Assembly (NCBI GenBank): GCA_038045825.1
Contig: JBBSXJ010000004.1
Location: forward strand, 95,301 to 159,300
Length of the DNA: 64,000 nt
Direction: 5' to 3'
DNA from: Nanobdellota archaeon
GTDB taxonomy: Archaea > Nanobdellota > Nanobdellia > Pacearchaeales > GW2011-AR1
In this document: piece by piece, positions 6,454-58,901 of the stretch
Layout: every line of letters begins with the position of its first letter
Position numbering within the stretch: position 1 is the stretch's first letter
Notes under the pieces: generated by a model
What the model was told of the DNA's origin: nothing
The model's input: only the letters and a program-made list of their open reading frames with translations
Databases searched by the model: none
Made by a program: the position numbers and the translations under genes

Positions 6454-6526
6454 GACCCCATAGTTTAATGGATCAGAATACGGGACTTCGGATCCTGTGA
6501 TCGAGGTTCGATTCCTCGTGGGGTCA
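6454..6526 (+). tRNA. tRNA-Arg (anticodon TCG)
   Basis: 7-bp acceptor GACCCCA/TGGGGTC, anticodon stem CGGGA/TCCTG with loop CTTCGGA, T-arm CGAGG-TTCGATT-CCTCG, discriminator A, followed by T-run; TATA-like tttaaaata about 25 bp upstream. Confidence 0.8.
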
Positions 6527-23852: not shown

Positions 23853-23909
23853 AAATTCTTGAGTATTCTTTACGGCTATGCTTATAAACTGTTTTTGTCT
23901 TTATTTTTG

Positions 23910-26900: not shown

Positions 26901-28232
26901 TGCGGAGCTCAATGCGACGGAACAATTAACGGATGTAGCTCTTCTCAAGAATGTAACTTGAATACTTGCGGATGCGATGAACTAGATCCTTCAATAAGCA
27001 ATATTGTTGTTGATAATTCTGAATGGAGTTCTAGTAGTCTTGTAACTATTAATGGGCAATACTTTTCAATTAATCCTAAGTCCAGGCTTTTTGTGAATGG
27101 ATTTGAAATTAATTCAAATAGATTAACTGTTACAGAAAGTACTATTAGGTTTACTAAAAATTCTGAAGAGTTTTTCGGAGGACAAAATAGCTTTGTTGTT
27201 ACAAATCCTTCAGGGCTTAACTCAGTTTCTACAATTGTTGCTTTGACAACCAGCCCATTTATTACTTCAATAACTCCTAGTCTTGTTTTGAATGATGAGC
27301 TTAATACTATTTCACTTTTTGGAAGCGGGTTTGATCCTCTTGCACAGGTTTATACTAATGTTGCGGGTTCATTATATAATTTAGGATTGCAGCTTCCTTA
27401 CTCTAATTCAGGAACATTGGCTTTTGTTCTTCCCCCAACATTCCCATTTGCAGGAGATGTTTCAATTTATATTGTTGGAGGAGATGGTACTCAATCTGCA
27501 GTTCAGAATCTTAGAATAAATCATAGGTTTAATTATGCATTAATACTTGCAAATCCCCAGGCATCTGTTAATTCTGGAGATACGATAAGTGATATTATTC
27601 AAGTTGGAAGTGAGTTTTATATGACTCAGGAAGATGTTGCTTTGACTGTTACTGCACCTGTTGGCGTTACTGCGACTATAAATGCAACGTCTTGCACTCC
27701 TATTTATGTTTCTGCTCTTGGATATTCTACTTGTGAAGTTAGTTATAGTGTGGAAACTACAGGATTACCCCCTGGGCAGTATATAGTTATGTTCACTGCT
27801 GATTCTGTTATTAGCAATGTTACTAAACAGATAAATTTAGTTGTTAATATTAATAGTCCTTTTCAGCCTACTGGCTCTAGTTCTGGATCTGGAAGCAGTA
27901 GTGGAACTGGGGGGCCTAGGCCTGTTTTAGTTGTAAAATACCAATGTAATGATGGGCTTGATAATGATAATGATGGTTTTAGTGACTTCGAAGAAGATAT
28001 GGGTTGTTCAACTGAAAATGATAACAGTGAGTTTGATCCTACGGAATTAGTTGAATCTGATATTCCTGTAAATGAAGAAGATCCTTTGAATTTGAAAGGA
28101 GAGGAAAAAGATGTTGAAGTAAGATTGGTGTTCTTACTTACTGTTTCTATCTTGATATTTGCTATATCTATTGTTGTTTTGATGATAATTCGGTCAATTA
28201 TTTTTAGAAGAATTAATATGAAAAGTTTTTAA
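23910..28232 (+). CDS. giant cell-surface protein A (FN3 modules, Cys-rich DNDCD repeats, C-terminal TM anchor). The ORF track starts at a TTG at 23859; the ATG at 23910 gives a MRLKYKLFFLF signal anchor
   Basis: N-terminal hydrophobic anchor; three FN3-like modules (…LRINWQDNSNNEMSFRIERRQLPNG…); C-x-DG-x-DNDCD motifs; C-term CNDGLDNDNDG + acidic linker + TM + basic tail. Confidence 0.7.
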   Translation: MRLKYKLFFLFLFLLFIFLFNFFKHPPTFSPESLTIPADLFVLPLNSSALRLTWNDNESTSMGFIIEKRSSLSDPFSMIAYVPNSNYALETFVDSSLPPNSSFEYRVMSIEGNNLSDPSNIFSAATGIRDNKLIFIPNFGTLDFLNLFTDSQSWQYVKSNIDGFGFFNHNLKTNPSCPFSVCRNVNYSNLVNVDAFSILKNSGIKVSIEVDALKWHSCVTLDRTVPVTRQLILNIENAGGEVDSLFMDQPLNGGQETLCQSSTGARIVNSCSECSTGETCRTCGYNMQQSAFQTAQYIKAIKKFRPEIKIGDTEPYSKFSYNQIRDWTLALKAENVTLDSFRSDVGSRQSSDIVNLRQIKDFFVQQNIPYGIIYWSYVPSTFIDNSARDREFFTRTFNWVNMVNNNNLDGSIQSFESWDTSPSNSPYPGQTVPINLPEVSSSIYSHTRLIIESLGLLIDNDARFVNQQVPLNIIAGHTYQVNLTFLNNGSQPWEEDRFYSLGSVNPIDNNIWGFGRVMMNDEEIIYPGQERKFSFFVTAPLNTGVYNFQWQMLHEPVERFGSLSDNLQINVMAPTLPNAPSNLLVTPLSNFQLRINWQDNSNNEMSFRIERRQLPNGNFAPLSTALNLPINTVNFTDNGLPAGASFEYRVFAVNTIGNSPSSNNAGGTTFQNIPNTPTNLIASTQSSSSIKLDWQDNSNDEYNFILSRRSISNGNPNPWFNISIPFNLRTYINNNLNPNVLYEFRILANNSGGQSSWSNSALNTTFICDSGQMRLCPNQNGVCVGAQETCAQGMWLGCTTSNYQSHSANYQVSETSCNDDLDNDCDVEFDYDGALAVKGDPSCPVRVSGINSPTPVTVSSPFTLTCTSTAPNVRSINGLVDSGSCNFVNWQGSDALFSCQSNIAGSTLARCNVNTAYSYQTGNNLNQSITVQTGICSAITQMGDCNNNLNCDWCEDCLGSSLQFSSGGVDRCVNTGTCPSAPLPNSVYMCRATGSVTCGAQCDGTINGCSSSQECNLNTCGCDELDPSISNIVVDNSEWSSSSLVTINGQYFSINPKSRLFVNGFEINSNRLTVTESTIRFTKNSEEFFGGQNSFVVTNPSGLNSVSTIVALTTSPFITSITPSLVLNDELNTISLFGSGFDPLAQVYTNVAGSLYNLGLQLPYSNSGTLAFVLPPTFPFAGDVSIYIVGGDGTQSAVQNLRINHRFNYALILANPQASVNSGDTISDIIQVGSEFYMTQEDVALTVTAPVGVTATINATSCTPIYVSALGYSTCEVSYSVETTGLPPGQYIVMFTADSVISNVTKQINLVVNINSPFQPTGSSSGSGSSSGTGGPRPVLVVKYQCNDGLDNDNDGFSDFEEDMGCSTENDNSEFDPTELVESDIPVNEEDPLNLKGEEKDVEVRLVFLLTVSILIFAISIVVLMIIRSIIFRRINMKSF

Positions 28233-30011: not shown

Positions 30012-30144
30012 ATTTTAATTTGAAGAATAAGTTTAATAATCCTGTAAAAGTTGCTTCAAGTTCAAAGAATTTCAGCATAGATATAGTCGGCAGTTAGATT
30101 TGATTTATAATAAACCTTATAAATCATCTTATTCTTTTTTCTTT

Positions 30145-33100
30145 ATGAGGCAGAGTGTAGACTTTTTTATATTTGTTTTTTTTGTTGCTTTTTGTTCTTT
30201 TGTTTTATTTTTTGGGTCGAACAAAACTCATAGCTTCTTTGATGTTGATGGGACGATCACAGGCAAAGTTATTGAAGAAGATTTTCTTCTTAATATCTCA
30301 GATCTTAGAACTTTCCCTAAAATATATATTGGCTCATCGTGTAAAATTGAAAAAATTTCATCTAGTGTTAATTCTGTTCGGATTGGAGATGTTGTTCATT
30401 TTGAGGTTTTAGGGAAAAATTGCGATGGTTATAGAGTAGATTTTGAGATTTTTGAAAAAGATATTTTATTTGATGATCATATAATTGATCTTCAAAGTGG
30501 TTTTGAAAATGGTGTTGCTTCATTTGACTGGAAAGTTACTGATGAAGTTTTAATTTTATCTGATGAGTCTATAGAAGACTCCAGACTTGAAATTTATTCC
30601 ATTGTCCATCTTAGCTCTTCTCCTATTTATTCTAATAATTTGGTTTCTGAGAAAATTTATCTTTTTTATGATGGCTATATACCTTTATCTCCATCTGGCG
30701 GGTCTGGGCCCGAAAGTGTTCAATGTTCTTCAATTACTAGACATGGTATTACATGGACTTTTTCACAACCTAGGGAATGTGGACAATTTGTTAATGGAGA
30801 TTGGTGGGTTCTTGGTCCTGTGACTATTACTTCAGTTTCACCTGGACAAATATCGGGTAGGCATGGCTCATGGTTGAATCCACTTGCTAATCTTCCCAGT
30901 CCAGGTGGATACAGACACCCGTTTGATGATCGTGCTGCACAGTATGATCCTTCATTGAGGCCAACATTTCCTTTGACAGTTACACAACCAGGATCTTTAC
31001 TTTCTACTGCTAGTCATACAACCCCTAATAATTGTCCTTCTTGCTTTTTGCCTGATCCCCCTACAGCTTGCTCTGATCTTCTCTATGATACTAGCGAGGC
31101 TACGGTGCTTGATACTTGCAGTAAAACCACTTTACGTACTGCTGCAGTATTAACTATTCTTACTCAAGTACCTCCGGCAGATAGTTTTAGGCCAACTTAC
31201 TTTAGCACAGATAAAACTATTCGTTATAATAAAAATCAATTAGATTATTCTTTTTTTGGTAATTTGACTCCAACTCCATTAACACCTCCTTTGATTGAAG
31301 TTGAAAGATCTTTTGAAAGAGTAAATGTTCAAGTTATTCACTGGCCTACAGAATCGATTCAACCGTCTGAAAATGCAGTTGGATATGGCAGAGATTTTGC
31401 TGATGAAGTTAGCATTGCAGCTCTGTCTTTGAATTTGAATTATACTCAAGCACAAAAAGAAACTTTAGCGATACGTTTAGTTCAATTGGGTATTGATTTT
31501 AATGGTGCATTAGAATTGGGTATGGAATGGAATCCAAATGGAGGACATGGTAATGGGCGTTTTTTCCCTATTCTTCTTGCAGGACTTATGTTAAATGATT
31601 CAAGACTTTTGAATGCTACAACTTATCATCCTAGGTTTTTTAGTGAAAAAGGTCAAACATTTGCTGTAACTAATTATCCTCCAAATACTCCCTCTTCAGT
31701 TATTCCTCAATGTTCAGCTGGAGGTGTTAACTGCGGTCATGGAGGATATACTTCTGCAGATATAGGACTTCCTGACTTTGGGTTTTCTCACTGGACAGGT
31801 CCTATTGTTGATGCGAAAGATTGGTTTGGTGATTCTTATCGTCGTTGTTGTACTGCCAATGGATGGAATGGGTATATTTTAGCTTCGCATATAATGGGAG
31901 TTACTGATAGCTGGAATTATGATGTTCTTTTCCCTTATACTGATCGTTATATGGAAAATCCTTTGACTGCAGGATGGAGAAGCTGGCATCCTTGGCTTGA
32001 AGAAATGTGGGATACTTATCGTGCTAATTATAATCGAGAGTGGAATCCTAATGATCTTTGCACGGAAGGAACTAGGAGAAGTTGTGAAGAACAGAGAGGT
32101 GTTTGTTTTCAATCTCAAGAGACTTGCAAGTTTAAGAATTGGTGGGGATGCAGTGCGCCTACTTATTCTCCTACTACTTATATGACTCACAACTCAAATT
32201 ATCAGGTAACTGAAAATAGTTGTGATGGACTGGATAATGATTGTGATGGTCAAACTGATGAAGGGTGTGTACCTGGAAGTCCGCCTAACCCGCCTAGTGA
32301 TTTGAACGTTACTCCGGTAAGTTCTATACAATTAAGGCTGAATTGGAAAGACAATAGCAACAACGAAGATAAATTTGTTGTTCAAAGAAGGCAGTTACCT
32401 AATGGACTCTTTGCTAATTTATCTACTGCTTCTAACCTGCCTGCTAATACAGTTACATTTACTGATAATGGTTTGCCTGCAAGTACATCATTTGAATATA
32501 GAGTCTTGGCTGAGAATAGCATCGGAGTTTCAACTTGGTCTAATTCTGCGAGCAATACTACTAATCAAAGTGCTCCTAACACTCCTAGCGGATTAACTGT
32601 TATTCCAATTAACAGTTCTAGTTTGAGAATTAATTGGAATGATGTTGTAAATGAAAATGGATATACTTTACAATTTAAACTAGCGTCTGCTTCTATTTTT
32701 GTAAATGTTTTTGGAGCTGGAAGTTTGTCAGCTAACACAGTTAGCTTTACTCATAATGGACTCTTAAATAATACTTCTTACAATTACCAGATTCTTGCAT
32801 TTAATAGTGGAGGTAATTCTTCATTTTCTCAAATAGCTACTGGCACTACAAATCAAAGTGCTCCACTTGACTTTATAATTTCTAGAAACCCTATATCTGG
32901 ATCTGTACAAAGAGGGAATTCTGTTTCTACTACAGTTACTGCGACTTATACTTCTGGAGTTTCATCTGCTGTGGCATTTACTGCTACTAACTTATCTGCT
33001 GGAATTTCTGCATTGTTTAGTCCAATAAGCTGCACTCCTTCCAGCGGAAGTCCTTGCTCTTCTACTCTTACACTATCTGCTTCTTCTAGCGCTGCTTTGG

Positions 33101-34278
33101 TTTCTAATCAAAGTGTTATAATTACTGGGACAAGCGGAGCAGTTGTTAGAAATGTGAATTATAACTTGACTGTTTTGAGTGTACCTGTTTGCACTAATGG
33201 ACAGGTTAGAAATTGTCAAGAACAGAGAGGAGTTTGTCTGAATTCATTTGAGACCTGTACTCTAAATAACTGGCCTGGATGCAATTACAATTCTATTCCA
33301 GGATATGCTTCTGTTGAAACTGGAGTTGAATTGTGTCGTGATGGACTTGATAATGATTGCGATGGAACACAAGATATTGGCGGAGATTCTGGATGCCCTA
33401 TACCTCGTTACTCTAGATTTAATAATAATATTACAACTAATCTTTCTAATGTAAGTGATCTAACTAGAGTTGTTAACTTCTCTGTTGGAATTCCAAGTAT
33501 TGGTAGAATACAATATTTGAGCCAAGAGGTTTCTTTATGGAGACTTGTTAATGGAGTTTACCAGGCACTAGATCTTGATAATGCTATTGCTATTGCAAGA
33601 AATATAGTTGGAGTATATAGTGAAAGTTATAGTGAATTGAATCAAACTGCTAGAGTTACTTTCTATAACCTGAGTTATACTGATGCTCCTGTTCCTACTA
33701 TTCAAACATCTAATGGATTTAGTATATGCTCTTCATCTAGATGTTTGCCTTTGTCTTATTCCAATGGTGAATTTGTAATGACTACTGTTGGATTCTCTAA
33801 CTATAGTACTCAAGTTTCAACTTGTGGAGATTCATATTGTCATGTGTTAACTGAGACTTGTTCTTCTTGTAGTTCTGATTGTGGATCGTGTGGGACTGGT
33901 TCTAGTTCTGGAGGATCATCTGGTGGTAGTTCTGGAGGAAGCGGTGGACCTCCTAGCAGATCTAGTACTTTAGTTACTCAATGCAATGATGGAGTTGATA
34001 ATGATGGTGATGACTTAGTTGACTATCCTGCTGATTTAGGCTGCTTGAATGCTAATGATAATATAGAACTTGATGAAATTATATTGGAATCTGAAGACTT
34101 CTCTGAAGAACCAGAGACCTTAACTCTTAGACCCAGAGATATAGGAATAGGATTTGTATTTTGGGTTGTTTTAATAGTTTTAATTTTGGGGATAATAGTT
34201 GTCGGAATAATAATAGCTAGTCATGTTCATAAGAGAAAGAAGTTTAGTGAATATATTAAGACAATAAATAAAAATTAG
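30145..34278 (+). CDS. giant cell-surface protein B, paralog of A and C. The ORF track starts at 30100; the internal ATG at 30145 gives a MRQSVDFFIFVFFVAF signal anchor
   Basis: TM anchor; ~450-aa N-terminal globular region; Cys-rich repeats (CEEQRGVCFQSQETCKFKNWWGC…CDGLDNDCDGQTDEGC); three FN3 modules; shared C-terminal module STLVTQCNDGVDNDGDDLVDYPADLGC + TM + KRKKF tail. Confidence 0.7.
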   Translation: MRQSVDFFIFVFFVAFCSFVLFFGSNKTHSFFDVDGTITGKVIEEDFLLNISDLRTFPKIYIGSSCKIEKISSSVNSVRIGDVVHFEVLGKNCDGYRVDFEIFEKDILFDDHIIDLQSGFENGVASFDWKVTDEVLILSDESIEDSRLEIYSIVHLSSSPIYSNNLVSEKIYLFYDGYIPLSPSGGSGPESVQCSSITRHGITWTFSQPRECGQFVNGDWWVLGPVTITSVSPGQISGRHGSWLNPLANLPSPGGYRHPFDDRAAQYDPSLRPTFPLTVTQPGSLLSTASHTTPNNCPSCFLPDPPTACSDLLYDTSEATVLDTCSKTTLRTAAVLTILTQVPPADSFRPTYFSTDKTIRYNKNQLDYSFFGNLTPTPLTPPLIEVERSFERVNVQVIHWPTESIQPSENAVGYGRDFADEVSIAALSLNLNYTQAQKETLAIRLVQLGIDFNGALELGMEWNPNGGHGNGRFFPILLAGLMLNDSRLLNATTYHPRFFSEKGQTFAVTNYPPNTPSSVIPQCSAGGVNCGHGGYTSADIGLPDFGFSHWTGPIVDAKDWFGDSYRRCCTANGWNGYILASHIMGVTDSWNYDVLFPYTDRYMENPLTAGWRSWHPWLEEMWDTYRANYNREWNPNDLCTEGTRRSCEEQRGVCFQSQETCKFKNWWGCSAPTYSPTTYMTHNSNYQVTENSCDGLDNDCDGQTDEGCVPGSPPNPPSDLNVTPVSSIQLRLNWKDNSNNEDKFVVQRRQLPNGLFANLSTASNLPANTVTFTDNGLPASTSFEYRVLAENSIGVSTWSNSASNTTNQSAPNTPSGLTVIPINSSSLRINWNDVVNENGYTLQFKLASASIFVNVFGAGSLSANTVSFTHNGLLNNTSYNYQILAFNSGGNSSFSQIATGTTNQSAPLDFIISRNPISGSVQRGNSVSTTVTATYTSGVSSAVAFTATNLSAGISALFSPISCTPSSGSPCSSTLTLSASSSAALVSNQSVIITGTSGAVVRNVNYNLTVLSVPVCTNGQVRNCQEQRGVCLNSFETCTLNNWPGCNYNSIPGYASVETGVELCRDGLDNDCDGTQDIGGDSGCPIPRYSRFNNNITTNLSNVSDLTRVVNFSVGIPSIGRIQYLSQEVSLWRLVNGVYQALDLDNAIAIARNIVGVYSESYSELNQTARVTFYNLSYTDAPVPTIQTSNGFSICSSSRCLPLSYSNGEFVMTTVGFSNYSTQVSTCGDSYCHVLTETCSSCSSDCGSCGTGSSSGGSSGGSSGGSGGPPSRSSTLVTQCNDGVDNDGDDLVDYPADLGCLNANDNIELDEIILESEDFSEEPETLTLRPRDIGIGFVFWVVLIVLILGIIVVGIIIASHVHKRKKFSEYIKTINKN

Positions 34279-41610: not shown

Positions 41611-42705
41611 ATGTTAAAAATTCCAAAAAAATGGAGAGAGTTACCTTTAGAGGAGAGAACAAATAAAATAGTTGAATTATTTGGGATTTCTAAAAAGACT
41701 ATTAACAAAATTAGAAATATTAGAGATAAAAAAATTAAATTAATAGCTTCTGCAAAAATCCAATATCAAATGTTCGGTGAGATTCATAGTTACTTGACTT
41801 GTTGGATTGCTGGTTACGGTAGTGACGTAGAAGTAAGAAATGTTTTTGGATCTACACATGCTTTAAGGTCTATTTTTATAAAGTTTGCAAGAGTTAAGGG
41901 AATAGAATATTCTTGGCAAGACATTAAAAGAGGAGTAAAAATTCCTGAAAAAATTACTCCTTTATTAGCAGAGGAAACAGGAATACATTTAGGAGATGGG
42001 TGTCTTTATTTATATATAGATAATAATGGTTATAAGTCATATAGATATTCTATTACTGGAAATCTTATAGATGAAGAGCCATATCACACAAATTATATTG
42101 CAAAAATTTTGTTTCAGCTTTATAATTTAAAACCTAGATTTCTAATAAGACCTAATCAGAATAGCATAGATACTACTGTTGGTTCTAAGGCAATATTTCA
42201 GTTTAAATCTAAGATTCTTGGTTTACCTTCTGGCAGTAAAAAGTATGCTAGCATACCTCTAGCTATTTTACAAAATAATGAACTTAGTAAAAGATGTTTG
42301 GTCGGTATATTTGATACTGATTTTAATATTACAGAACATCTAGCTATTAGTGGTAAGATTCACAGTATTAATGTGACTAGACAAATTCATGAAATTCTTT
42401 TAAGAAATAATATTAAGCACATCTATAAAGAATATGAGGATTATGGTAGATTTTATATTAGCAAGAATTATGCAAAAATTATTGTTAAAGAATGGGAAAT
42501 GCATAACCTAAAACATTTGACAAAGTTTGAGGTCTTTGAAAAATTTGGGAAATTTATTCCATTTACAACTACACCAGAAAGAATTTCTTTATTAAACGGA
42601 AGTCTTTCTTTGGAGGAATTAGAGAAAATTAGCGAAAAAAGAAAAAATATCAACGACTCTGCGAGGACTCGAACCTCGGACCCCACGGTTTCTTTGAATC
42701 CTTAA
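41611..42705 (+). CDS. hypothetical protein with N-terminal HTH and degenerate LAGLIDADG-like motifs (possible free-standing homing-endonuclease-like protein)
   Basis: KIVELFGISKKTINKIRN (HTH-like); IAGYGSDVEV, GIHLGDGCLYLY, LVGIFDTDFN resemble LAGLIDADG blocks; 3' end reads through ~50 nt of the opposite-strand tRNA. Confidence 0.35.
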   Translation: MLKIPKKWRELPLEERTNKIVELFGISKKTINKIRNIRDKKIKLIASAKIQYQMFGEIHSYLTCWIAGYGSDVEVRNVFGSTHALRSIFIKFARVKGIEYSWQDIKRGVKIPEKITPLLAEETGIHLGDGCLYLYIDNNGYKSYRYSITGNLIDEEPYHTNYIAKILFQLYNLKPRFLIRPNQNSIDTTVGSKAIFQFKSKILGLPSGSKKYASIPLAILQNNELSKRCLVGIFDTDFNITEHLAISGKIHSINVTRQIHEILLRNNIKHIYKEYEDYGRFYISKNYAKIIVKEWEMHNLKHLTKFEVFEKFGKFIPFTTTPERISLLNGSLSLEELEKISEKRKNINDSARTRTSDPTVSLNP

Positions 42706-42749
42706 TGAATCCTAACAGCCGTGTGCTCTACCTGCTGAGCTACAGAGTC
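42654..42749 (-). tRNA. intron-containing tRNA, probably tRNA-Asn (anticodon GTT) with a 23-nt intron at canonical 37/38
   Basis: acceptor GACTCTG/CAGAGTC, D-arm GCTC-AGCAGGTA-GAGC, anticodon stem CACGG/CCGTG separated by 30 nt (CTGTTA|23 nt|A), T-arm CGAGG-TTCGAGT-CCTCG, discriminator G as in tRNA-Asn. Confidence 0.7.
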
Positions 42750-50026: not shown

Positions 50027-53000
50027 TTATAATTTCTGAATGAAACCTGCCTTTGGCTTGAAAATGTCTCCTGATTTTGATAATTGATTTATTGCATCTT
50101 CTATTTCTTCTTTTGTTAGTTTTTCTCCCAATTCTTTTTCTAGTTCTGCTGTGGGGATTAGTTTTCCTAGACTTTGTTCTAACTTAGATATTGTTTCTCT
50201 TACTATTATGATTTTATTTCTTTTTGATGCAGGAATTCCAGTTGTTATTCTATCTACATCAAATGTTTGAGTTTCTTCATCAAATCCTACTTGCATCATC
50301 GAATATTTTAGTAATTTTATTGCTCTTCTTGCGTCTTCAACACCCACATAACTACTCAATCTTATTTTTGCACATGCTTCTGAAAGTCTTACTATTGCCT
50401 CTAATTGTCTAGCAGTTATTGGAATTGCTTTTATTTCTGAATTTCCAGATAATGTTCTATTTCTTATTGAAATATAGAATTCTTTTATTTCTTCTGCCGC
50501 TTCGTCTGTTAATTTTGGTTTTATTTTTCTTGCAAATGCGACATACTTTCTTAATAGTTTTGGATCTATTACATCTCTTTCAACTGTTTGTTTGTGTTCT
50601 TCTAAGACATGAGATGCAATTGCTTCATCCTGGACTCTGTTTGGTATGTCTCTTAATACAAAGATAACATCAAATCTACTTAATAATGCTGGAGAGATAT
50701 TGATTTGCTGAGGAATAGGAATTACTGGATCAAATCTTCCTAATTTTGGGTTGCCAGCTGCTAGAACTGAAGTTTCTGATCTTAGTGTTGCTTGGATATT
50801 TGCTTTGGAGATTGTAACAGTATTATGAAGAATTGCTGCTTGGGAAACAAACGCATGGTTTGGTTCAATAGTTACATCGTAAACCCATTCTTCATCTTCA
50901 TTGTCCATTACTTCAACACCCCTTACTTTTTCCCACCCAATATCTCCCGTTAATATTTCTAAGAACTCCTTGTTTTTTTCATTTTTAACTTGGAGCAGTA
51001 AATTTTTCAAGAAATCTGCTGAAAATGAAAACTTGTCATTTCTAACTTGATGATCATAAATTATGTCATATTGCTTATATTTGCCTACTTGAGTTATATT
51101 CTCTTCTTTAATTATTGCGATTATTGATTCGTTAAAATCTAAAGGAAGCCTGTTTTTTACATATCTCCTTATCTTTTTTTCTTTAAGATAATTATTTATT
51201 ATTTGATTCTTTCTCTCTGTTACAAATCCAATATTTTCAGAGAATCTTTGAATATTTTGATAATCTGTTATTCCTACCTTGTAAAATCCTTTATGCTCTG
51301 TTACTGAACTTCTTATTTTAAACCTAAGCAGCAAGTCTTGTATTTGCTCTGCTAGTCTTTTACTTTTTGTTGAATATCCTATCCTTATTGTTCTCTTTTT
51401 TATTGAAGCATAACCATCTCCTTCAAATAAACAGGAGATCATTGCTGCAATATTTTCTTTTTCACCTTTCATCGCAAATTTTGGTATTTCTTTCTCTCCT
51501 GCATATCTAATCATTTCATGCATATTCTTTAAAATAAAATTACTTAGCTCTCTAGAAATATAACGGCAGAAATACATTGGGCCTGTCGGATCTATTCTTA
51601 TCTGTTTATATGGTTTAAGATTAAATGTCTTTTTCATACATTCTTCAAAATCTTTTATGACAATTTCATCTTTATTCGCAAAACTTATCCTGATTAATTT
51701 ACCTCTATTTCTTTCCTTTGATCCCTCTGAAACAATATATCCTACTATCTTGAATAGCTCTCTGCAATTAGATGTAGGAATAGTTGGATGTTGTTTTATT
51801 CTTTGGTCCAAGCTTACCCCCATCTTTTCAAATACTTGTTTCTTTCCACTTATTGGCATACTTAATGGAATTGGGATTGGATCTTCTAGTTGGATATTAT
51901 CTGCTCTTTTTGTTATTATTTTTCCATCTTTTACAGTGAATACGGGATGTTCCGGGGTAACTATTATTTCTCTCCCATGAGATAATTTTATTTTAATAAA
52001 TTTTTTAAAAGCTTTATGCTTGCTTATGCGAGTAGCTTTTATTGGAGAGATATTTTTCCAATCTGTTGTAAGTAGTTCTAAATCATTAACATGAAGTATT
52101 AAACAGTCTTTTCCTTGAATTATTTTTTCTTTATTTTTTTCTAGAAGACTCTCAACTAATTCTCCTATTTTTACTTCTTGACCATCTGCTAGACTAATTA
52201 TTGTATCTTTGTGATAACATTGTTGCTCCATGCTTTCATGCATCGTTGATCTATCATGTTCGTCCATTTTTTCTATTTCATCTATACAAACTGTTCCTTT
52301 ATTTGATAGAACCATTGCTCCTGCTTCTAGAGACCATCCTTTCAAAAATTCATCTTTTACAACTGCTGCTGTAAGGCCTGCTCCTGTTGCTGCTTTTCCA
52401 GAAACATAACGTCCTTTAGGAGCTACACGAGATACAAATTTTAGAGTTACCGATTTTGCTACTCCAGGATCTCCTACTAAAAGAACGTGAATGTCTCCTC
52501 TTGTGTTCCCACCATCTGAACGTTTTTTCTTTACACCTGAAAATAACTGAAGAAGTATAGCTTCTTTTACTTCTTTGAAACCATATACGCTTGGAGCTAT
52601 ACTGCTTGCAAGTCTTTCAAATGCTTTTGGATCTGTAGCTATTTTTTTTATTTGTTCTTCGTCTTTTTCATTTACTTCCAGATCATCAAATGTTTCTTCT
52701 AAAGGTATTGCATTATTTGCTTCAATTGCTAAATCGAATCTTGTAGAAATAGAACCTTGCTGAAGAGGTACAGGAACTTCCTTTAGAACACCTATTATTC
52801 TTACTTTACTTCCAGGAGTCGTTCTATCTTCCATTCTAGGATCTACCAAATCTTCTTTCAGAAAGACATTCATTCTTCTTGGCTGCTCTCCTCCTTCTAA
52901 TGAATCTGGAGATTCTTCAATTACAAGACGTTGAGCATCAACCAGTTCTTTTGAAAGTAGTTTGAATAATCCCTTTCTTCCGCATGAACATCTACTTGGT

Positions 53001-53434
53001 TCTCTGAATTTTCTGTCTATTTGAAGAACTGATAAAATTGCTCCACATGTTGGACATTCAAATCTGGCATTAACAACTTGAGGTCTTACATCTGACGCTT
53101 GACGAACTATTCCTTCAATTGTTATGAATTGATCTAAATGTTTTGCCCTAATTTCTTTTATTTTTATTTTGACTGAATCTGGGAGAGATGTGAATCTTAT
53201 TCTTGGAGGTTTTGGAAGGTATGCTTGTTCTTCCAGGCAAAGTTCTAATAAGGCAATTATTTCTTCTGGAGTCTCTAAAAGTTTTTCTGATAACATTGGA
53301 GAAAATTTAGATAAGTGATAAAAGTCTAAAGGAACAACTTGGTCATTTTTTACAGATCTTATTATCTCCTTCTTGCTGTTTTGGAAGAATTCTTTTGCTT
53401 CTTTTTCAAGTTCCTGCTTTTTTCCTAGTTCCAT
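50027..53434 (-). CDS. mcm: MCM replicative helicase, interrupted in-frame by an intein
   Basis: zinc finger CPTC…CSC, Walker A GDPGVAKS, Walker B CIDEIEKM, HESMEQQ|intein|TVTISKANIQ, arginine finger SRFDVIF; extein 669 aa. Confidence 0.9.
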   Translation of the reverse strand: MELGKKQELEKEAKEFFQNSKKEIIRSVKNDQVVPLDFYHLSKFSPMLSEKLLETPEEIIALLELCLEEQAYLPKPPRIRFTSLPDSVKIKIKEIRAKHLDQFITIEGIVRQASDVRPQVVNARFECPTCGAILSVLQIDRKFREPSRCSCGRKGLFKLLSKELVDAQRLVIEESPDSLEGGEQPRRMNVFLKEDLVDPRMEDRTTPGSKVRIIGVLKEVPVPLQQGSISTRFDLAIEANNAIPLEETFDDLEVNEKDEEQIKKIATDPKAFERLASSIAPSVYGFKEVKEAILLQLFSGVKKKRSDGGNTRGDIHVLLVGDPGVAKSVTLKFVSRVAPKGRYVSGKAATGAGLTAAVVKDEFLKGWSLEAGAMVLSNKGTVCIDEIEKMDEHDRSTMHESMEQQCYHKDTIISLADGQEVKIGELVESLLEKNKEKIIQGKDCLILHVNDLELLTTDWKNISPIKATRISKHKAFKKFIKIKLSHGREIIVTPEHPVFTVKDGKIITKRADNIQLEDPIPIPLSMPISGKKQVFEKMGVSLDQRIKQHPTIPTSNCRELFKIVGYIVSEGSKERNRGKLIRISFANKDEIVIKDFEECMKKTFNLKPYKQIRIDPTGPMYFCRYISRELSNFILKNMHEMIRYAGEKEIPKFAMKGEKENIAAMISCLFEGDGYASIKKRTIRIGYSTKSKRLAEQIQDLLLRFKIRSSVTEHKGFYKVGITDYQNIQRFSENIGFVTERKNQIINNYLKEKKIRRYVKNRLPLDFNESIIAIIKEENITQVGKYKQYDIIYDHQVRNDKFSFSADFLKNLLLQVKNEKNKEFLEILTGDIGWEKVRGVEVMDNEDEEWVYDVTIEPNHAFVSQAAILHNTVTISKANIQATLRSETSVLAAGNPKLGRFDPVIPIPQQINISPALLSRFDVIFVLRDIPNRVQDEAIASHVLEEHKQTVERDVIDPKLLRKYVAFARKIKPKLTDEAAEEIKEFYISIRNRTLSGNSEIKAIPITARQLEAIVRLSEACAKIRLSSYVGVEDARRAIKLLKYSMMQVGFDEETQTFDVDRITTGIPASKRNKIIIVRETISKLEQSLGKLIPTAELEKELGEKLTKEEIEDAINQLSKSGDIFKPKAGFIQKL
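50822..52219 (-). mobile_element. MCM intein (466 aa) with LAGLIDADG homing-endonuclease domain
   Basis: starts with Cys right after MEQQ (CYHKDTIISL), ends …AAILHN followed by Thr; LAGLIDADG-like blocks IVGYIVSEGS and ISCLFEGDGYAS. Confidence 0.8.
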
Positions 53435-53687: not shown

Positions 53688-53738
53688 TTGTTGAATTCTA
53701 GAACAAACTTTATAAATGACTTTTGTATACTTATTGTA

Positions 53739-56700
53739 ATGAAAAGAGATGGTTTTTTATTTGTAGTTATTGCTTTTGCCATTCTCTCTGCTTTTGTTTT
53801 TTATTTTGATTACTCTAAAGAATGTGGTTCCGTTGTTTGTATAGCAACATTTGTTTCCACTGGAGAGACTTCGGCTTCCGAATATAAGTTAGATGATTCT
53901 GTTTTATCTAAAATTATTTATCCTTTCGTTAATCCTGTTGAAGGTGTTCTTTTACAGCCTGCTGATGATCCAACTGAACCACCTTTGCCACCTAGTGATT
54001 TAAATGCTACACCTTTAAGTTTTTCCTCTATGAGATTGGATTGGAAAGATAATAGTAATACTGCAAATAATGGTGAGGAAGGATTTATTTTGCAGTATAA
54101 ATTATCTTCTGCTCCTGCATCTGCTTGGGCGGATGCTCCTGGTGCTAATGGTTTGCCTCCAAACACAGAATCATTTATACATAATAATCTCATGCCAAGC
54201 ACTTCTTATGATTATAGAGTGCTTGCTTATAATATAATTGATTCTTCTCCTTGGTCAAATACTGCTACTGGAATTACTCTATCTGATGCGCCTATTATTA
54301 ATTCATTTAGTCCTAATCCTGTTTATAATCATGTTTCAACTAATGTTTCAATACTAGGAGATAATCTTCCAGTTAATTTTGCTATTTTGTTTAAACCTCA
54401 AGGACAAGCTAGTTATGATCCTTATTGTTCTTTTGCTACTGCTGGCTGTTCTAGAATTAGCTCTAATGAAATTAGATTTCCTATACAGAGAAATGCTATC
54501 GCAGATGTTTATGATATTAAAGTTGTTAATTTAGATAATTCTCGAGAATCTCAACCTCAGCAGCTTACTATTAGAAATGCACCTGTTCCAATAATTAGTA
54601 CATTAACTCCTGGAACTGTAAGACATAATATTGCAAGGACGATTACAATTAATGGATCTAATTTGATGCCAGAGTATGCTATTTTTGCAAGAGATACACT
54701 TACTCAAACGACTCTGAGTATTTGTAATTATCTTACTGGAAGTAATTATAATTGTAATTGGGTTAATAGCAATACATTCACTTTTGTGATTCCTCAAGGA
54801 CAGGATACAGGGTCTTTTGAGTATCAATATGCTAATGTAATAGATGCTAATACTGGTTTCTTTCAGTATTCAGTTAATTGGTTGCCTTTGACTATAGAGC
54901 CTACGACTTGTCTTGATGGTGTCGATACTACTCCTTGTAGTAACCAACAAGGTGTTTGTCAAGGTTCTGTTGCTAGATGTGTTGATGGAGAGTTTGAAGT
55001 TTGCAATTCTGCAACTTATTCTACTCATAGTCTAAATTATGCTTCTGTTGAAACTGGCTCTGTTTTATGTGCTGATGGTAGCGATAATGATTGTGACGAG
55101 CTTAATATTGCTACTGGTGGAAGAGATTATGTTGGAAGTGGAAATGGTGCTATTAAAGGAGATACTGGCTGTCCTATTCAAATTACAAATATAAATGCAC
55201 CTTCTAGTGTTAATACAGGCACTAATTTTAATTTAGTTTGCACATCAAATCCTGGAAGTGTTTCTGTTGCATTAGATGGATTTATTGACTCTTCTTCTTG
55301 CGCTTTATCTAGTTCTAGTGGAAATACCGCTACTTTTAGCTGTGTTAGTTCTTCTACTCCTGGGATAACTCAAATTGCAAAGTGCGACGTTGATTCTTCT
55401 ATATCTTATAGGAGTGGAAATGCTTTGACATCTAATGTACAAATAACTGCTAGTTCTTGTTCTGGATATAGTGAAAGTACAAGTTGCAATGCTGCACCTG
55501 GTAATATTTGTCAATGGTGTCTTGGATGTGCTGGTACCAGCGGGACTAAATCTAGCGGGGGTCCAGATAGATGTGTAGATGCAGGTACTTGTTCTGGATC
55601 TTATCAATGTAGAATTAATCAATGTGGTGCTACGTGTGAGGGAACTTCTAGTGGTTGTTCTCAATCACAGAGTTGTAATGCTAACTCTTGCGGTTGTGTT
55701 GATCAGAGCCCGGTTATAAATAATATAAATAATCTTCCTAGTCCTACATTTTCATGGGGATCTAACAATGCTTTAACTGTTAATGGACAATATTTTGCTT
55801 CTAATGCTGAATTAAGAATTGATGGAGTTCCTTGTTCTACACGATGTCAGAATTTAGTTATTACTGGAAATAGTATCTCTTTTAATATTGGGGCTGGAGC
55901 ATTTGGAGTTGGAACTCATACTATTGTTGTTAGAAACCCAACTCCTTCTCCTGGATTGAATTCTAGCTCTTTAACTTTCACTTTAAGATCTAATCCTGTA
56001 ATAAACTCTGTTTCCCCTAATATTATTGTTAATAATGTTAATAATGTGATTAATATAACTGGAAATGATTTTGATCCTTTAGCAATTGTTACTGCTAATG
56101 GAATAGCTGTAACTCCTTTGATAGTTGTTGTTAATTCTAATTTAATACAATTACCTTTACCTCCTGGAATATTGGGGACTTTAGTAGGGGACTTTGCAAT
56201 TAGAGTTATAAGTGGAGATGGTGTTGTTTCTTCTCCTCCGCAAAATCTTAGAGTTAATTACCCATTTAGTTATCTTTCTACATTGAATCCTTCTATTGTT
56301 CCTGTTGTTTCTGGATCTTCATTTAATGTCCTGGTTGAATTAGAAAGTCTTGTTGAAATGACTCAAGAAGAAGTTATTATTTCTGCTCAGTCTATTCCTG
56401 AAGCTTCTGTTAGCTTTGTTGGATTAGATAGATGCACTCCTAGTGCTGGAAACCCTAATCCTACTTGTAATGTGACTCTTGATGTAGATGTTGGAAATGT
56501 AGTTGAACAAGATTATAATATTACTATTACTGCAACATCTCAAACTACCAACATTGTCCGTCGGGTTACGTTAATTTTGCAAGGGGAGATAGGAACTCTT
56601 GCTGAATGTAGAAATGGTATTCAAGATACTCATGAAACTTGTGTAGATGGCGGAGGTCCTATCTGCGCACCTGCTGGTATTTTATGTGGCTTTGGAGAGT

Positions 56701-57806
56701 CTTGTTTATTAAATTCTGATTGTGTTGTTGCTGGCTCTGCATATACTGCTGGATTGTGTTATAGCAATAATATTTGTAGTATAGATAATGATGGAGATAG
56801 TGTTCCTGATGGACCAATTCCCAATAATTTAGATTTATGTCTTAATACTCCTATATCTACAATTGTTAGTACTTTGAATGGGTGTCCTGTTCCTTCTGTT
56901 TCTAGATTTGTATCTCCGTTAACTACTAATTTCTTTGCAGTTCCTGATTTGAGCAATGTTCAAGATATGTCTCTGGCGGTTTCTGGGGCAGGAAGAATAC
57001 AATATTTAGGGCAAAGAGTTTCTGTTTTGAGAAATGCTACAGGGGTTCATCAGGCTTTGAATTTAGATAATGCCGTAAATATAGAAAGCAATTTGATTGG
57101 GGTTGATGCTTTGGGTAATCCTGAACTTGATCAAACTGCTGTTTTGACATTTGAAGGTTTATCTTACTCTGAAGCGCCTACTCCTGTTGTTTCAAGTTCT
57201 ACAGGATATATTGTTTGTCCTTCTACTTTATGCCAGAGTTTGTCTTATGTTAATGGAGTATTCAGCGTGAATGTTGCTGGATTTAGTAATTATAGTACTC
57301 AAAATTCTACCTGTGGAGATACTTATTGTAGTTTGAGTGAGACTTGTTCTTCTTGTGGTTCTGATTGCGGAGTATGTACTTCTTCTAGTGCAAGTGGATC
57401 TGGTAGTGGTAGTTCTGGAGGATCAGGAGGATCTAGTGGGGGACCTCCTAGAAGATCTAGTACTTTAGTTACTCAATGCAATGATAGAATTGATAATGAT
57501 GGAGATGGAAGGATAGATTATCCTGCAGATACTGGATGTACAAATGTTCAAGATAATCTGGAATTGTTTGTAGAACCTCTTATTGATACAGACGAAGAAG
57601 AAACAGGAGAGGAGATTTCTCTTGAAAGAATATTTGAAGTAAGGGTTGTATTTTGGATAGTTCTTCTTGCTTTGATTGGAGGAATAGTTGTTGTATCTAC
57701 AGTAATACTTAGAGATTTGATGGGAAGAAAGAAATTTAATCAGCTTTCTAAAGCAATTAATCCAACCCAATCTTCAACGCGGAGTTCTCCTCCTGTAGGC
57801 ATATAA
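53739..57806 (+). CDS. giant cell-surface protein C, paralog of A and B. The ORF track starts at a TTG at 53688; the ATG at 53739 gives a MKRDGFLFVVIAFAIL signal anchor
   Basis: N-terminal anchor, FN3 module, Cys-rich modules homologous to protein A (25-30 Cys), C-terminal region homologous to protein B (…STLVTQCNDRIDNDGDGRIDYPADTGC…), acidic linker, TM, basic tail. Confidence 0.7.
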   Translation: MKRDGFLFVVIAFAILSAFVFYFDYSKECGSVVCIATFVSTGETSASEYKLDDSVLSKIIYPFVNPVEGVLLQPADDPTEPPLPPSDLNATPLSFSSMRLDWKDNSNTANNGEEGFILQYKLSSAPASAWADAPGANGLPPNTESFIHNNLMPSTSYDYRVLAYNIIDSSPWSNTATGITLSDAPIINSFSPNPVYNHVSTNVSILGDNLPVNFAILFKPQGQASYDPYCSFATAGCSRISSNEIRFPIQRNAIADVYDIKVVNLDNSRESQPQQLTIRNAPVPIISTLTPGTVRHNIARTITINGSNLMPEYAIFARDTLTQTTLSICNYLTGSNYNCNWVNSNTFTFVIPQGQDTGSFEYQYANVIDANTGFFQYSVNWLPLTIEPTTCLDGVDTTPCSNQQGVCQGSVARCVDGEFEVCNSATYSTHSLNYASVETGSVLCADGSDNDCDELNIATGGRDYVGSGNGAIKGDTGCPIQITNINAPSSVNTGTNFNLVCTSNPGSVSVALDGFIDSSSCALSSSSGNTATFSCVSSSTPGITQIAKCDVDSSISYRSGNALTSNVQITASSCSGYSESTSCNAAPGNICQWCLGCAGTSGTKSSGGPDRCVDAGTCSGSYQCRINQCGATCEGTSSGCSQSQSCNANSCGCVDQSPVINNINNLPSPTFSWGSNNALTVNGQYFASNAELRIDGVPCSTRCQNLVITGNSISFNIGAGAFGVGTHTIVVRNPTPSPGLNSSSLTFTLRSNPVINSVSPNIIVNNVNNVINITGNDFDPLAIVTANGIAVTPLIVVVNSNLIQLPLPPGILGTLVGDFAIRVISGDGVVSSPPQNLRVNYPFSYLSTLNPSIVPVVSGSSFNVLVELESLVEMTQEEVIISAQSIPEASVSFVGLDRCTPSAGNPNPTCNVTLDVDVGNVVEQDYNITITATSQTTNIVRRVTLILQGEIGTLAECRNGIQDTHETCVDGGGPICAPAGILCGFGESCLLNSDCVVAGSAYTAGLCYSNNICSIDNDGDSVPDGPIPNNLDLCLNTPISTIVSTLNGCPVPSVSRFVSPLTTNFFAVPDLSNVQDMSLAVSGAGRIQYLGQRVSVLRNATGVHQALNLDNAVNIESNLIGVDALGNPELDQTAVLTFEGLSYSEAPTPVVSSSTGYIVCPSTLCQSLSYVNGVFSVNVAGFSNYSTQNSTCGDTYCSLSETCSSCGSDCGVCTSSSASGSGSGSSGGSGGSSGGPPRRSSTLVTQCNDRIDNDGDGRIDYPADTGCTNVQDNLELFVEPLIDTDEEETGEEISLERIFEVRVVFWIVLLALIGGIVVVSTVILRDLMGRKKFNQLSKAINPTQSSTRSSPPVGI

Positions 57807-58901
57807 CTACTCTATTTGGAATCTTAAAATTGCTCCAAAACCCTTTGTAATATTGAAGAACTGTTCTCCTTCTTGAGTTTCATTTGAAATAAGAATTACT
57901 TCTGAGCCCATATCTAGAGCCAGTCTTTCGAACTCGGCTATCTTGCTCTTTTCTAACTTACTTGATAATAATAATTTGTATACTGCTCCTCTTTCTAGAG
58001 CTACTCTTGTTTTATCTTCTCCATATGCAGCTTTTTCAGGGTATTTTCCTAGAGTCATGAAAAATTCTTCTATGATCTTTTTTTCTTTTATTATTTCTTG
58101 TTCGGCTATATCTTCTTGAGATGCTTCAACTAATAGTTTTAATCCATGTTCATCAACATAACCTATATCTTTTACTGCAATTACTTTTTCTTTTAATTTT
58201 GTAACTAGATTTCCATCTTCTAAGAATTCTTCTTTAGTTGGGATTGGACCACCTACTAAAAGACCTTTCAATCTTGGAAGTTCGAAGAATAATTCTTTTG
58301 CTGCTTCACTAGTTCTTCTAAAGAACTCTTTGGCTAGGCCTTCTGTAATTCTATGGAATCTTTGTGCTGATTGACCACCAGCCCTTACTTTAGATGGAAC
58401 ACCCGAAGTTAAATGTCTTAAAACTTTAATTTGCTTTCCTTCTAGTAATCCTAGTGTTGCTTCTTGCCTATCGATTACTATTAATCCATAGACTTCATCT
58501 GTTTGCAACATCTCCCTTAAGGGTTCTGTTACAAATACTTGATCGCAACGATACATTCTTACACGTAGAGGTTTAGGCGGTTCTATTGCCCATAATTTAA
58601 TATCTGATATTCCTTCTTTTTCAGAAATATTTCCTGCGTAAAGAGCTAGACCATTTGGAGGAGTTTGTTTTGTACCTTTAAGGAAACGTACTATCATATC
58701 TATAGAGTCGGTTACTGCTGATCTCGTTGCTTTAGACTTAATGTTGTCTGCAGTGGATCTTTCAGCTTCTAATTGTTTTGTTACGCTATGGATATTAAAA
58801 TCAACTGGAATCATCACTGTTACTAGTTCTGTATGTCTGCCTCTTACAGCTTCTAGTTCTTCAATCTGTTCTTCTAATTGTAATTTCTGTTTGTCGTTCA
58901 T
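57807..58901 (-). CDS. prf1: peptide chain release factor aRF1
   Basis: NIKS stop-codon-recognition motif (TADNIKSKATR) and GGQ peptidyl-hydrolysis motif (RAGGQSAQRF). Confidence 0.8.
   Translation of the reverse strand: MNDKQKLQLEEQIEELEAVRGRHTELVTVMIPVDFNIHSVTKQLEAERSTADNIKSKATRSAVTDSIDMIVRFLKGTKQTPPNGLALYAGNISEKEGISDIKLWAIEPPKPLRVRMYRCDQVFVTEPLREMLQTDEVYGLIVIDRQEATLGLLEGKQIKVLRHLTSGVPSKVRAGGQSAQRFHRITEGLAKEFFRRTSEAAKELFFELPRLKGLLVGGPIPTKEEFLEDGNLVTKLKEKVIAVKDIGYVDEHGLKLLVEASQEDIAEQEIIKEKKIIEEFFMTLGKYPEKAAYGEDKTRVALERGAVYKLLLSSKLEKSKIAEFERLALDMGSEVILISNETQEGEQFFNITKGFGAILRFQIE

Follow-up and report, generated by a model that had tools for sequence, protein, structure and literature searches.

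A predicted class-1 intein with a nested LAGLIDADG homing endonuclease at the MCM-c site of a groundwater DPANN helicase

The MCM locus and its insert

The stretch of DNA analysed here, hereafter the window, comprises 64,000 nucleotides (nt) of contig JBBSXJ010000004.1 from a Nanobdellota archaeon (assembly GCA_038045825.1) and encodes on its reverse strand an MCM helicase, whose gene is interrupted in frame by a segment of 466 amino acids (aa). Judging from its sequence, this segment is very probably a class-1 intein, placed at the MCM-c site of the replicative helicase of a low-GC groundwater DPANN archaeon (Pacearchaeota/'Nanoarchaeota'). Nested in it is a LAGLIDADG homing endonuclease of the double-motif type, which is probably active. 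The features of the locus are listed in Table 1.

The motif HESMEQQ occupies aa 399–405 of the 1135-aa open reading frame (ORF) and is followed by Cys406; the insert (aa 406–871) starts with CYHKDT and ends with ILHN, and Thr872 comes right after it (TVTISKANIQATL). When the insert is deleted in silico, an MCM of 669 aa remains. The initial annotation had reported an MCM ORF of 1135 aa, an insert of 466 aa at positions 50822 to 52219 and a remainder of 669 aa, and all of these values are exact; the two LAGLIDADG-like motifs that it had quoted are also present, IVGYIVSEGS at 51719–51748 and LFEGDGYAS at 51404–51430.

The insertion point has the form EQQ↓T(V/I)(S/T)ISKA (here and below, the arrow marks the junction between extein and intein). 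It lies 78 residues past the Walker A lysine and 17 residues past the DEIE of Walker B, and directly precedes the strand which forms the presensor-1 hairpin. The C-extein contains, in this order, the presensor-1 hairpin strand (TVTISKANIQATL), sensor-1, the arginine finger SRFD, the lid and the winged helix. As the insertion parts Walker A and Walker B from the presensor-1 hairpin, sensor-1 and the arginine finger, splicing would be obligatory for the helicase. The host protein, the one MCM within the window, is presumably essential.

Table 1. Features of the intein-bearing MCM gene and of the two ORFs next to it (window coordinates).
Feature	Position	Strand	Description	Evidence
MCM precursor gene	50027..53434	-	1135 codons and stop; N-extein, intein and C-extein in a single open frame	ORF list, Pfam
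N-extein, MCM aa 1-405	52220..53434	-	N-terminal/OB domain and first part of AAA+, ends ...MHESMEQQ	
Walker A GDPGVAKS	52451-52474	-	In N-extein	
Walker B IDEIE	52271-52285	-	In N-extein; DEIE = aa 385-388	
Intein, Cys1 to His465-Asn466	50822..52219	-	466 aa; missing from the 98%-identical allele P0017/L001	
N-terminal splicing (HINT) region, intein 1-125	51845..52219	-	Block A Cys1, block B VTPEHP	
Block B T88/H91	51947-51958	-	Within VTPEHP	
LAGLIDADG homing endonuclease core, intein ~150-332	51224..51772	-		Pfam, model secondary structure, Foldseek
Motif 1 KIVGYIVSEGS, catalytic E165	51725-51727	-		
Motif 2 CLFEGDGYAS, catalytic D268	51416-51418	-		
Alpha-helical extension, intein ~333-425	50945..51223	-	Five helices, block pLDDT 71-95; between endonuclease core and block F	
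C-terminal splicing region, intein 426-466	50822..50944	-	Block F WVYDVTIEPNHAFV (D448), block G ILHN	
C-extein, spliced-protein aa 406-669 and stop	50027..50821	-	Begins with +1 nucleophile Thr	
AbrB/MazE-like ORF, 75 aa	49753-49980	-	KKWGNSIGIIIP; directly downstream of MCM	
PIN-domain ORF, 124 aa	49391-49765	-	Pfam PIN 4.9e-7; overlaps the AbrB/MazE-like ORF	

Conserved domains, catalytic residues and predicted structure

Two profiles are found by Pfam in the insert, Intein_splicing (PF14890; E 3.6e-24, 85.8 bits with a cutoff of 35.8) and LAGLIDADG_3 (PF14528; E 2.4e-20, 73 bits with a cutoff of 22.5); the scores are well above the cutoffs, which excludes a chance resemblance. The two profiles sit between the halves of a split MCM P-loop domain, the first half of which covers aa 258–406, and the insert is flanked by MCM_OB, MCM_lid and the archaeal winged helix (MCM_WH_arc). 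Based on phmmer against the PDB, the nearest solved sequence relatives of the insert are inteins, namely PI-PkoII (4e-15) and the Pyrococcus CDC21-1 mini-inteins (1.5e-14), and the N-terminal splicing region aligns with the PhoCDC21-1 and PabCDC21-1 inteins. Concerning the host, residues 9–667 of the spliced protein match the archaeal intein-free MCM structure 8x7t (1.3e-135), and the junction is free of gaps (...HEsMEQQT-vtISKAnI... against ...HEALEQQT-ISISKAGI...). The spliced product retains GDPGVAKS, IDEIE and SRFD, and its domain order is colinear with that of archaeal MCMs.

The conservation of single residues was assessed in this intein together with 52 full-length inteins of the same site (n=53). 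All 53 sequences have either Cys or Ser at position 1 of the intein, the present one having Cys. Residues T88, P89, E90 and H91 of block B, D448 of block F (WVYDVTIEP) and H465 and N466 of block G are invariant (53/53). The two LAGLIDADG helices end with IVGYIVSE165G and CLFEGD268G, and both acids as well as the LAGLIDADG glycines are intact; the column of E165 is acidic in 47 of the 53 sequences (E in 38, D in nine), and D268 is retained in 49. Identity to the five closest inteins is 59–67% in the endonuclease core, with no indels, and 68–76% in the two splicing regions. As the core is nearly as conserved as the splicing regions and lacks indels, decay of the endonuclease is argued against. 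The helical extension shows 58–61% identity to the same five inteins, likewise with no indels, and about 21% in the next clade; it probably serves as a linker or as an accessory region for DNA binding.

An AlphaFold2 model of the intein, built from a family alignment of 17 sequences, is confident (predicted local distance difference test, pLDDT, 88.2; predicted TM-score, pTM, 0.88). The top PDB matches of the model in Foldseek are endonuclease-bearing inteins (7qss, 2cw7, 1dq3 and 7qst; E 5e-25 to 2e-19, TM 0.6–0.7), the best being TliVMA (7qss, 5e-25); 7qst is PhoVMA. The HINT part superposes on mini-inteins with a root-mean-square deviation (rmsd) of 1.4–2.2 Å, while the middle part resembles the free-standing LAGLIDADG enzymes I-DmoI and I-Tsp061I. 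Residues 153–330 of the model display a repeated alpha-beta-beta-alpha-beta-beta-alpha pattern, with the endonuclease nested between blocks B and F.

The initial annotation had taken the host for an MCM and the insert for an intein carrying a LAGLIDADG endonuclease, and had proposed intein profiles and blocks A, B, F and G as checks. The host is an MCM according to the Pfam domains (MCM_OB, MCM, MCM_lid and the winged helix) and the match to 8x7t, and Pfam, phmmer, the conserved residues and Foldseek all identify the insert as an intein in which a LAGLIDADG endonuclease with two motifs is nested; PF14890 and PF14528 are both above their thresholds and all four blocks are present.

Distribution among close relatives

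The spliced extein was used as the query, and the 120 closest MCM clusters listed (71–100% identity) were compared. Only three of them carry the intein (P0018, P0107 and P0136), each as a protein of 1135 aa, and P0018 is essentially the allele of the window. The remaining 117 are intein-free and 625–679 aa long. This patchy distribution is what is expected for a homing element.

The closest intein-free allele, P0017, is a protein of 669 aa with 11 amino acid differences from the extein of the window (98% protein identity). At the DNA level (L001, GCA_053535335.1), 206 of 2010 nt positions differ from the extein of the window, which assigns its host to a sister species and to another population; the presence of just 11 amino acid changes against 206 nt changes points to strong purifying selection on the exteins. 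The empty target site of L001 reads ...GAACAGCAG↓ACTGTAACA... and, in a second rendering of the junction, TCAACAATGCATGAAAGCATGGAACAGCAG↓ACTGTAACAATTTCTAAAGCAAACATTCAA. It is identical at the protein level to the junction of the window, with the sister lineage at about 90% average nucleotide identity.

The two more distant intein-bearing clusters share 74% (P0107) and 72.5% (P0136) of the extein and 66% and 64% of the intein, respectively; inteins usually evolve faster than their host protein (PMC4071816), as is also seen here. The GC content of the intein is 0.298 versus 0.339 in the exteins, and that of third positions 0.204 versus 0.155; a clear signal of foreign composition was not found in either the overall or the third-position values. 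Three more intact intein-bearing alleles are present in independent groundwater assemblies (L125, L126 and L127), and the near-identical alleles (99.7%) come from metagenomes of the Hainich aquifer, which points to groundwater as the source of the window.

A protein of 384 aa from ENA (P0014, on a contig of 7.5 kb) combines about 96 unrelated N-terminal residues with the last ~30 residues of the intein family (blocks F and G) and an entire C-extein of MCM. Rearrangement or truncation of the gene, a chimeric assembly and a split arrangement are possible explanations.

The insertion site across archaea

For the archaeal census we used a degenerate DNA pattern of the C-terminal junction (HN↓[TSC][IV][ST][IV][AS]KA[GN][IV]xAxL), which intein-free MCMs cannot match. 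The pattern has one match in the window, with none expected, and is matched by at least 119 GTDB species-genome stretches. In all 119 listed loci, block G (...LHN) is fused to an MCM C-extein. The N-terminal junction is also contained in 74 of the listed loci, on which the counts of length and homology rest: HE.(M/L)EQQ↓ is found in 74/74, followed by Ser in 61 and by Cys in 13. These 74 inteins are 164–572 aa long, 17 of them being mini-inteins of 164–250 aa, and all are homologous to the intein of the window (blastp E 1e-10 to 0). All 13 inteins with Cys1 belong to the clade of Woese-/Nano-/Pacearchaeota type (including L069, described below), so that the splicing nucleophile is clade-specific among the 74.

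The hosts of the census include many Asgard lineages, Thermococci, Desulfurococcales, Thermofilum, Methanothrix, other Methanosarcinales, Methanocella and Thermoplasmata. Theionarchaea, Hydrothermarchaeota, Altarchaeum, Micrarchaeota, Aenigmatarchaeota, Nitrososphaerota, Woese-/Nanoarchaeota and Halobacteria are represented too.

In haloarchaeal MCMs with several inteins, the site is separate from site a (GDPGTGK↓C) and site d (DELDKMR↓C...HN↓SEDRS), and lies 14 residues past the latter, which is close to Walker B. Site d is the R↓S site of PMC10643990; intein sites have been placed at positions 401 and 415 of the Hfx. volcanii MCM (PMC3972481), and a 'point c, right before PS1BH' has been described for MCM (PMC4760082). 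The spacing of 14 aa fits 401 versus 415, with 415 as the present site, and, together with the description of point c, identifies the site as MCM-c/CDC21-c. The letter 'c' was assigned by elimination and description, and settled by inspecting the haloarchaeal multi-intein MCMs, since the lettering in the papers is inconsistent. MCM is the commonest archaeal intein host, with 116 inteins (PMC4760082), and a listing from 2014 gave a single halobacterial case for this site (PMC4071816). The MCM-c site is already known, and it is widely occupied.

One census locus is filed under bacteria: in L069 (CAXPJQ010000052.1, a metagenome-assembled genome (MAG) labelled 'Bdellovibrionales bacterium'; match at 6478–6521, reverse strand), an archaeal MCM contains a Cys1 intein of 473 aa at MCM-c. 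Its C-extein is of DPANN type (TVSIAKANIRATLR), and it is probably bin contamination from a DPANN archaeon of the 0.2-um fraction.

Comparison with known inteins

The inteins at MCM-c/CDC21-c, for example those of Natronomonas and Haloquadratum walsbyi, share the identical insertion point, HE.(M/L)EQQ↓(S/T)(I/V)(S/T)(I/V)(A/S)KA, and agree in the residues of blocks B, F and G; their splicing and endonuclease domains are homologous to those of the present intein. The haloarchaeal members are, however, only 24–29% identical to the intein of the window and longer (~504–572 aa versus 466 aa). Cys1 of the present intein is replaced by Ser1 in haloarchaea and most other phyla, and Thr+1 by Ser+1 in haloarchaea. 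The inteins of Woese-, Pace- and Nanoarchaeota MAGs (P0107/L111, P0136/L029, P0001/L011, P0002, L039 and L102) are closer: they have the same site, Cys1 and domain order, are 464–466 aa long and show 62–66% full-length identity, whereas their hosts are other species with exteins 72–75% identical.

Among solved structures, PI-PkoII (Tko Pol-2 intein, 2cw7), TliVMA (7qss) and PI-PfuI (1dq3) share with the intein of the window a HINT fold that bears a double-motif LAGLIDADG endonuclease at the canonical position (Foldseek E 5e-25 to 8.5e-22, TM 0.60–0.69), at 16–20% sequence identity. Their hosts differ (DNA polymerase, V-ATPase and ribonucleotide reductase), as do their accessory regions. The Pyrococcus CDC21-1 mini-inteins (6rpp, 6rpq; PMC6801210) also reside in MCM and superpose in the HINT core with an rmsd of 1.4–1.7 Å over 121 columns; unlike the intein of the window, which is found at site c, they occupy the P-loop site (MCM-a), lack an endonuclease and are only 164–168 aa long.

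Proposed mechanism and alternative explanations

Splicing and endonuclease activity are read here from conserved residues and domains, and would proceed as follows. Translation would give a precursor of 1135 aa, in which Cys1 would undergo an N-S acyl shift, aided by Thr88 and His91 of block B. The thioester would be passed to the side chain of Thr+1 by trans-esterification, cyclisation of Asn466, helped by His465 and by Asp448 of block F, would free the intein, and an O-N shift would rebuild the peptide bond (...MEQQ-TVTISKAN...) to give the MCM of 669 aa. The excised protein of 466 aa would recognise and cut the uninterrupted DNA site, and repair from the intein-bearing allele would copy the intein into it.

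Several points weigh against a spliced intein whose endonuclease is still active. Retained catalytic acids do not prove endonuclease activity. The closest sampled intein relatives are merely 62–66% identical and a recent donor was not identified; the divergence of the intein roughly tracks that of the extein, which also fits an old residence with many losses. Among viral contigs, neither a coding sequence related to the intein nor a match to the junction pattern was found. In the comparison with the intein-free L001, the divergence near the site (±30 to ±150 nt) is 1.3–1.5 times that of the rest, a weak signal (p 0.016–0.15).

Co-conversion of the extein flanks was considered in this comparison of the window with L001. 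The near/far ratios of free-versus-free controls are 0.65–1.09, and the signal is too weak for co-conversion to be claimed.

The first alternative is that of a resident intein, which still splices but whose endonuclease no longer homes, so that it is inherited vertically and is on its way to a mini-intein. It draws on the 17 mini-inteins of 164–250 aa among the 74 allelic inteins, which mark endonuclease loss as common at MCM-c, on the roughly proportional divergence of intein and extein among the three intein-bearing lineages, and on the empty site that the sister species retain unchanged at the protein level. On the other hand, E165, D268 and the LAGLIDADG glycines are intact, the core is conserved and indel-free as described above, and the length is fixed at 464–466 aa in the close clade; with 117 of the 120 closest listed MCM clusters intein-free, purely vertical inheritance would require the intein to have been deleted exactly many times. 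We regard this alternative as rather unlikely.

A stronger version of the preferred reading would have the intein actively homing at present among related groundwater Pacearchaeota, with a patch of differences at the junction as a possible footprint of repeated homing or repair. It draws on the intein-positive strains in several Hainich aquifer assemblies and on the empty, protein-identical target site of the sister lineage. The window differs from the conspecific alleles L125 (5001–8408), L126 (3001–6408) and L127 at 5–8 of 1398 nt of the intein and at 18–21 of 2010 nt of the extein. Five synonymous differences fall at -7, +2, +5, +11 and +14 around the insertion, a span of 22 nt in which about 0.2 would be expected; elsewhere the alleles differ at ~0.3%. 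L125, L126 and L127 agree with each other and the window alone differs, so the patch amounts to one lineage contrast. Eight further differences, from +755 to +779 of the C-extein, indicate that ordinary recombination patches also occur, and simple co-conversion predicts the reverse of the pattern at the junction. We consider present-day homing of this kind distinctly improbable.

We think it very unlikely that the intein also serves as a conditional-splicing switch, which would gate the maturation of the helicase, for example in response to redox state or metals via Cys1. Conditional splicing has been reported as a precedent in Pho RadA (PMC4513877) and in mycobacterial DnaB (PMC6195587, PMC7360933), the site lies in the core for ATP hydrolysis and DNA translocation (PMC10643990), and Cys1 is specific to the Woese/Nano clade, the larger part of the allelic inteins (61/74) having Ser1. 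However, no regulatory feature is evident in the sequence, and the intein is not required, as close species do without it.

An inactivated, pseudogene-like MCM, unable to splice and replaced in its function by another MCM elsewhere, is a highly improbable explanation. What speaks for it is that the search for MCMs covered one 64-kb window. Against it stand the purifying selection on the exteins (11 aa per 206 nt versus L001), the intact ORF in four independent assemblies, and the canonical nucleophiles and assisting residues; in addition, a second MCM was not found among the window ORFs scanned with Pfam, nor another intein in the window by tblastn.

Finally, the reading of the 466 aa as an accessory domain internal to MCM, which has nothing but the in-frame insertion in its favour, is refuted and has next to no probability left, since a 98%-identical MCM lacks exactly this segment, all intein blocks are present, the Pfam and structure matches are inteins and homing endonucleases, and the spliced sequence aligns without gaps to solved MCMs; the initial annotation had named an alignment with the segment in intein-free homologues as its refutation, and the outcome was the opposite, as 117 of the 120 closest listed clusters, including P0017, are without it.

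The intein reading is thus retained. The insert is a well-formed, ordinary homing intein, a selfish element of a well-known type, at a known and widely used site, and the initial annotation was correct in both observation and interpretation.

Genomic neighbourhood

The window (GC content 0.325) belongs to a DPANN archaeon and is a housekeeping region, with genes for ProRS, AspRS/AsnRS-type and class I synthetases, GatB, an amidase, FtsZ, aRF1 and an M1 peptidase. The close homologues of its MCM are labelled Candidatus Pacearchaeota or Nanoarchaeota. No other inteins were found in the window outside 50.7–52.3 kb (tblastn with 75 inteins).

The AbrB/MazE-like and PIN genes form a toxin-antitoxin-like pair, which is present in the conspecific L125 and L126 and missing in the sister species L001, L123 and L124; in these three, a gene for an OB-fold protein follows about 35 nt after MCM. 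The gap between MCM and the OB gene is variable, with an extra ORF of 80 aa in L125 and one of 244 aa in L126 and L127. Large putative surface proteins with fn3/TIG domains, rich in Cys, Ser and Thr (1372–1457 aa), are encoded at 53688–57806, 23859–28232 and 30100–34278, all on the forward strand. The surface protein divergent from MCM varies: it has 1372 aa in the window, 1355 aa in L125 and 172 + 1890 aa in L001.

The aRF1/eRF1 gene of the window (57807–58901, reverse strand; 364 aa) is intein-free, and a distant relative of the window intein (P0013, 28% identity) is located inside an aRF1 homologue of another archaeon. At 42654–42749 on the reverse strand, ARAGORN calls a 96-nt 'tRNA-???' with a four-base anticodon (ttag), which overlaps the end of the ORF at 41611–42705; either an archaeal tRNA with an intron or a spurious prediction could account for it.

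Implications

As MCM is the top intein host in archaea and the site is known, the significance of the finding is small beyond correct annotation. Annotation itself is affected: the NCBI database names the orthologous 1135-aa precursors P0137 and P0138 (MEK6925128.1, MEK6894122.1) 'LAGLIDADG family homing endonuclease [Nanoarchaeota archaeon]', that is, after the intein, so that the replicative helicase is hidden in these MAGs. Such misnaming can distort completeness estimates as well as the metabolic and replication inventories of DPANN MAGs. Concerning the family, inteins at MCM-c are found in at least 119 species from nearly every archaeal phylum, far wider than the listing of 2014 (PMC4071816). 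The intein-positive allele and the intein-free sister alleles are ready substrates for a test of homing-endonuclease specificity and, if active homing were true, the groundwater populations would offer a natural system for the dynamics of intein invasion in DPANN archaea.

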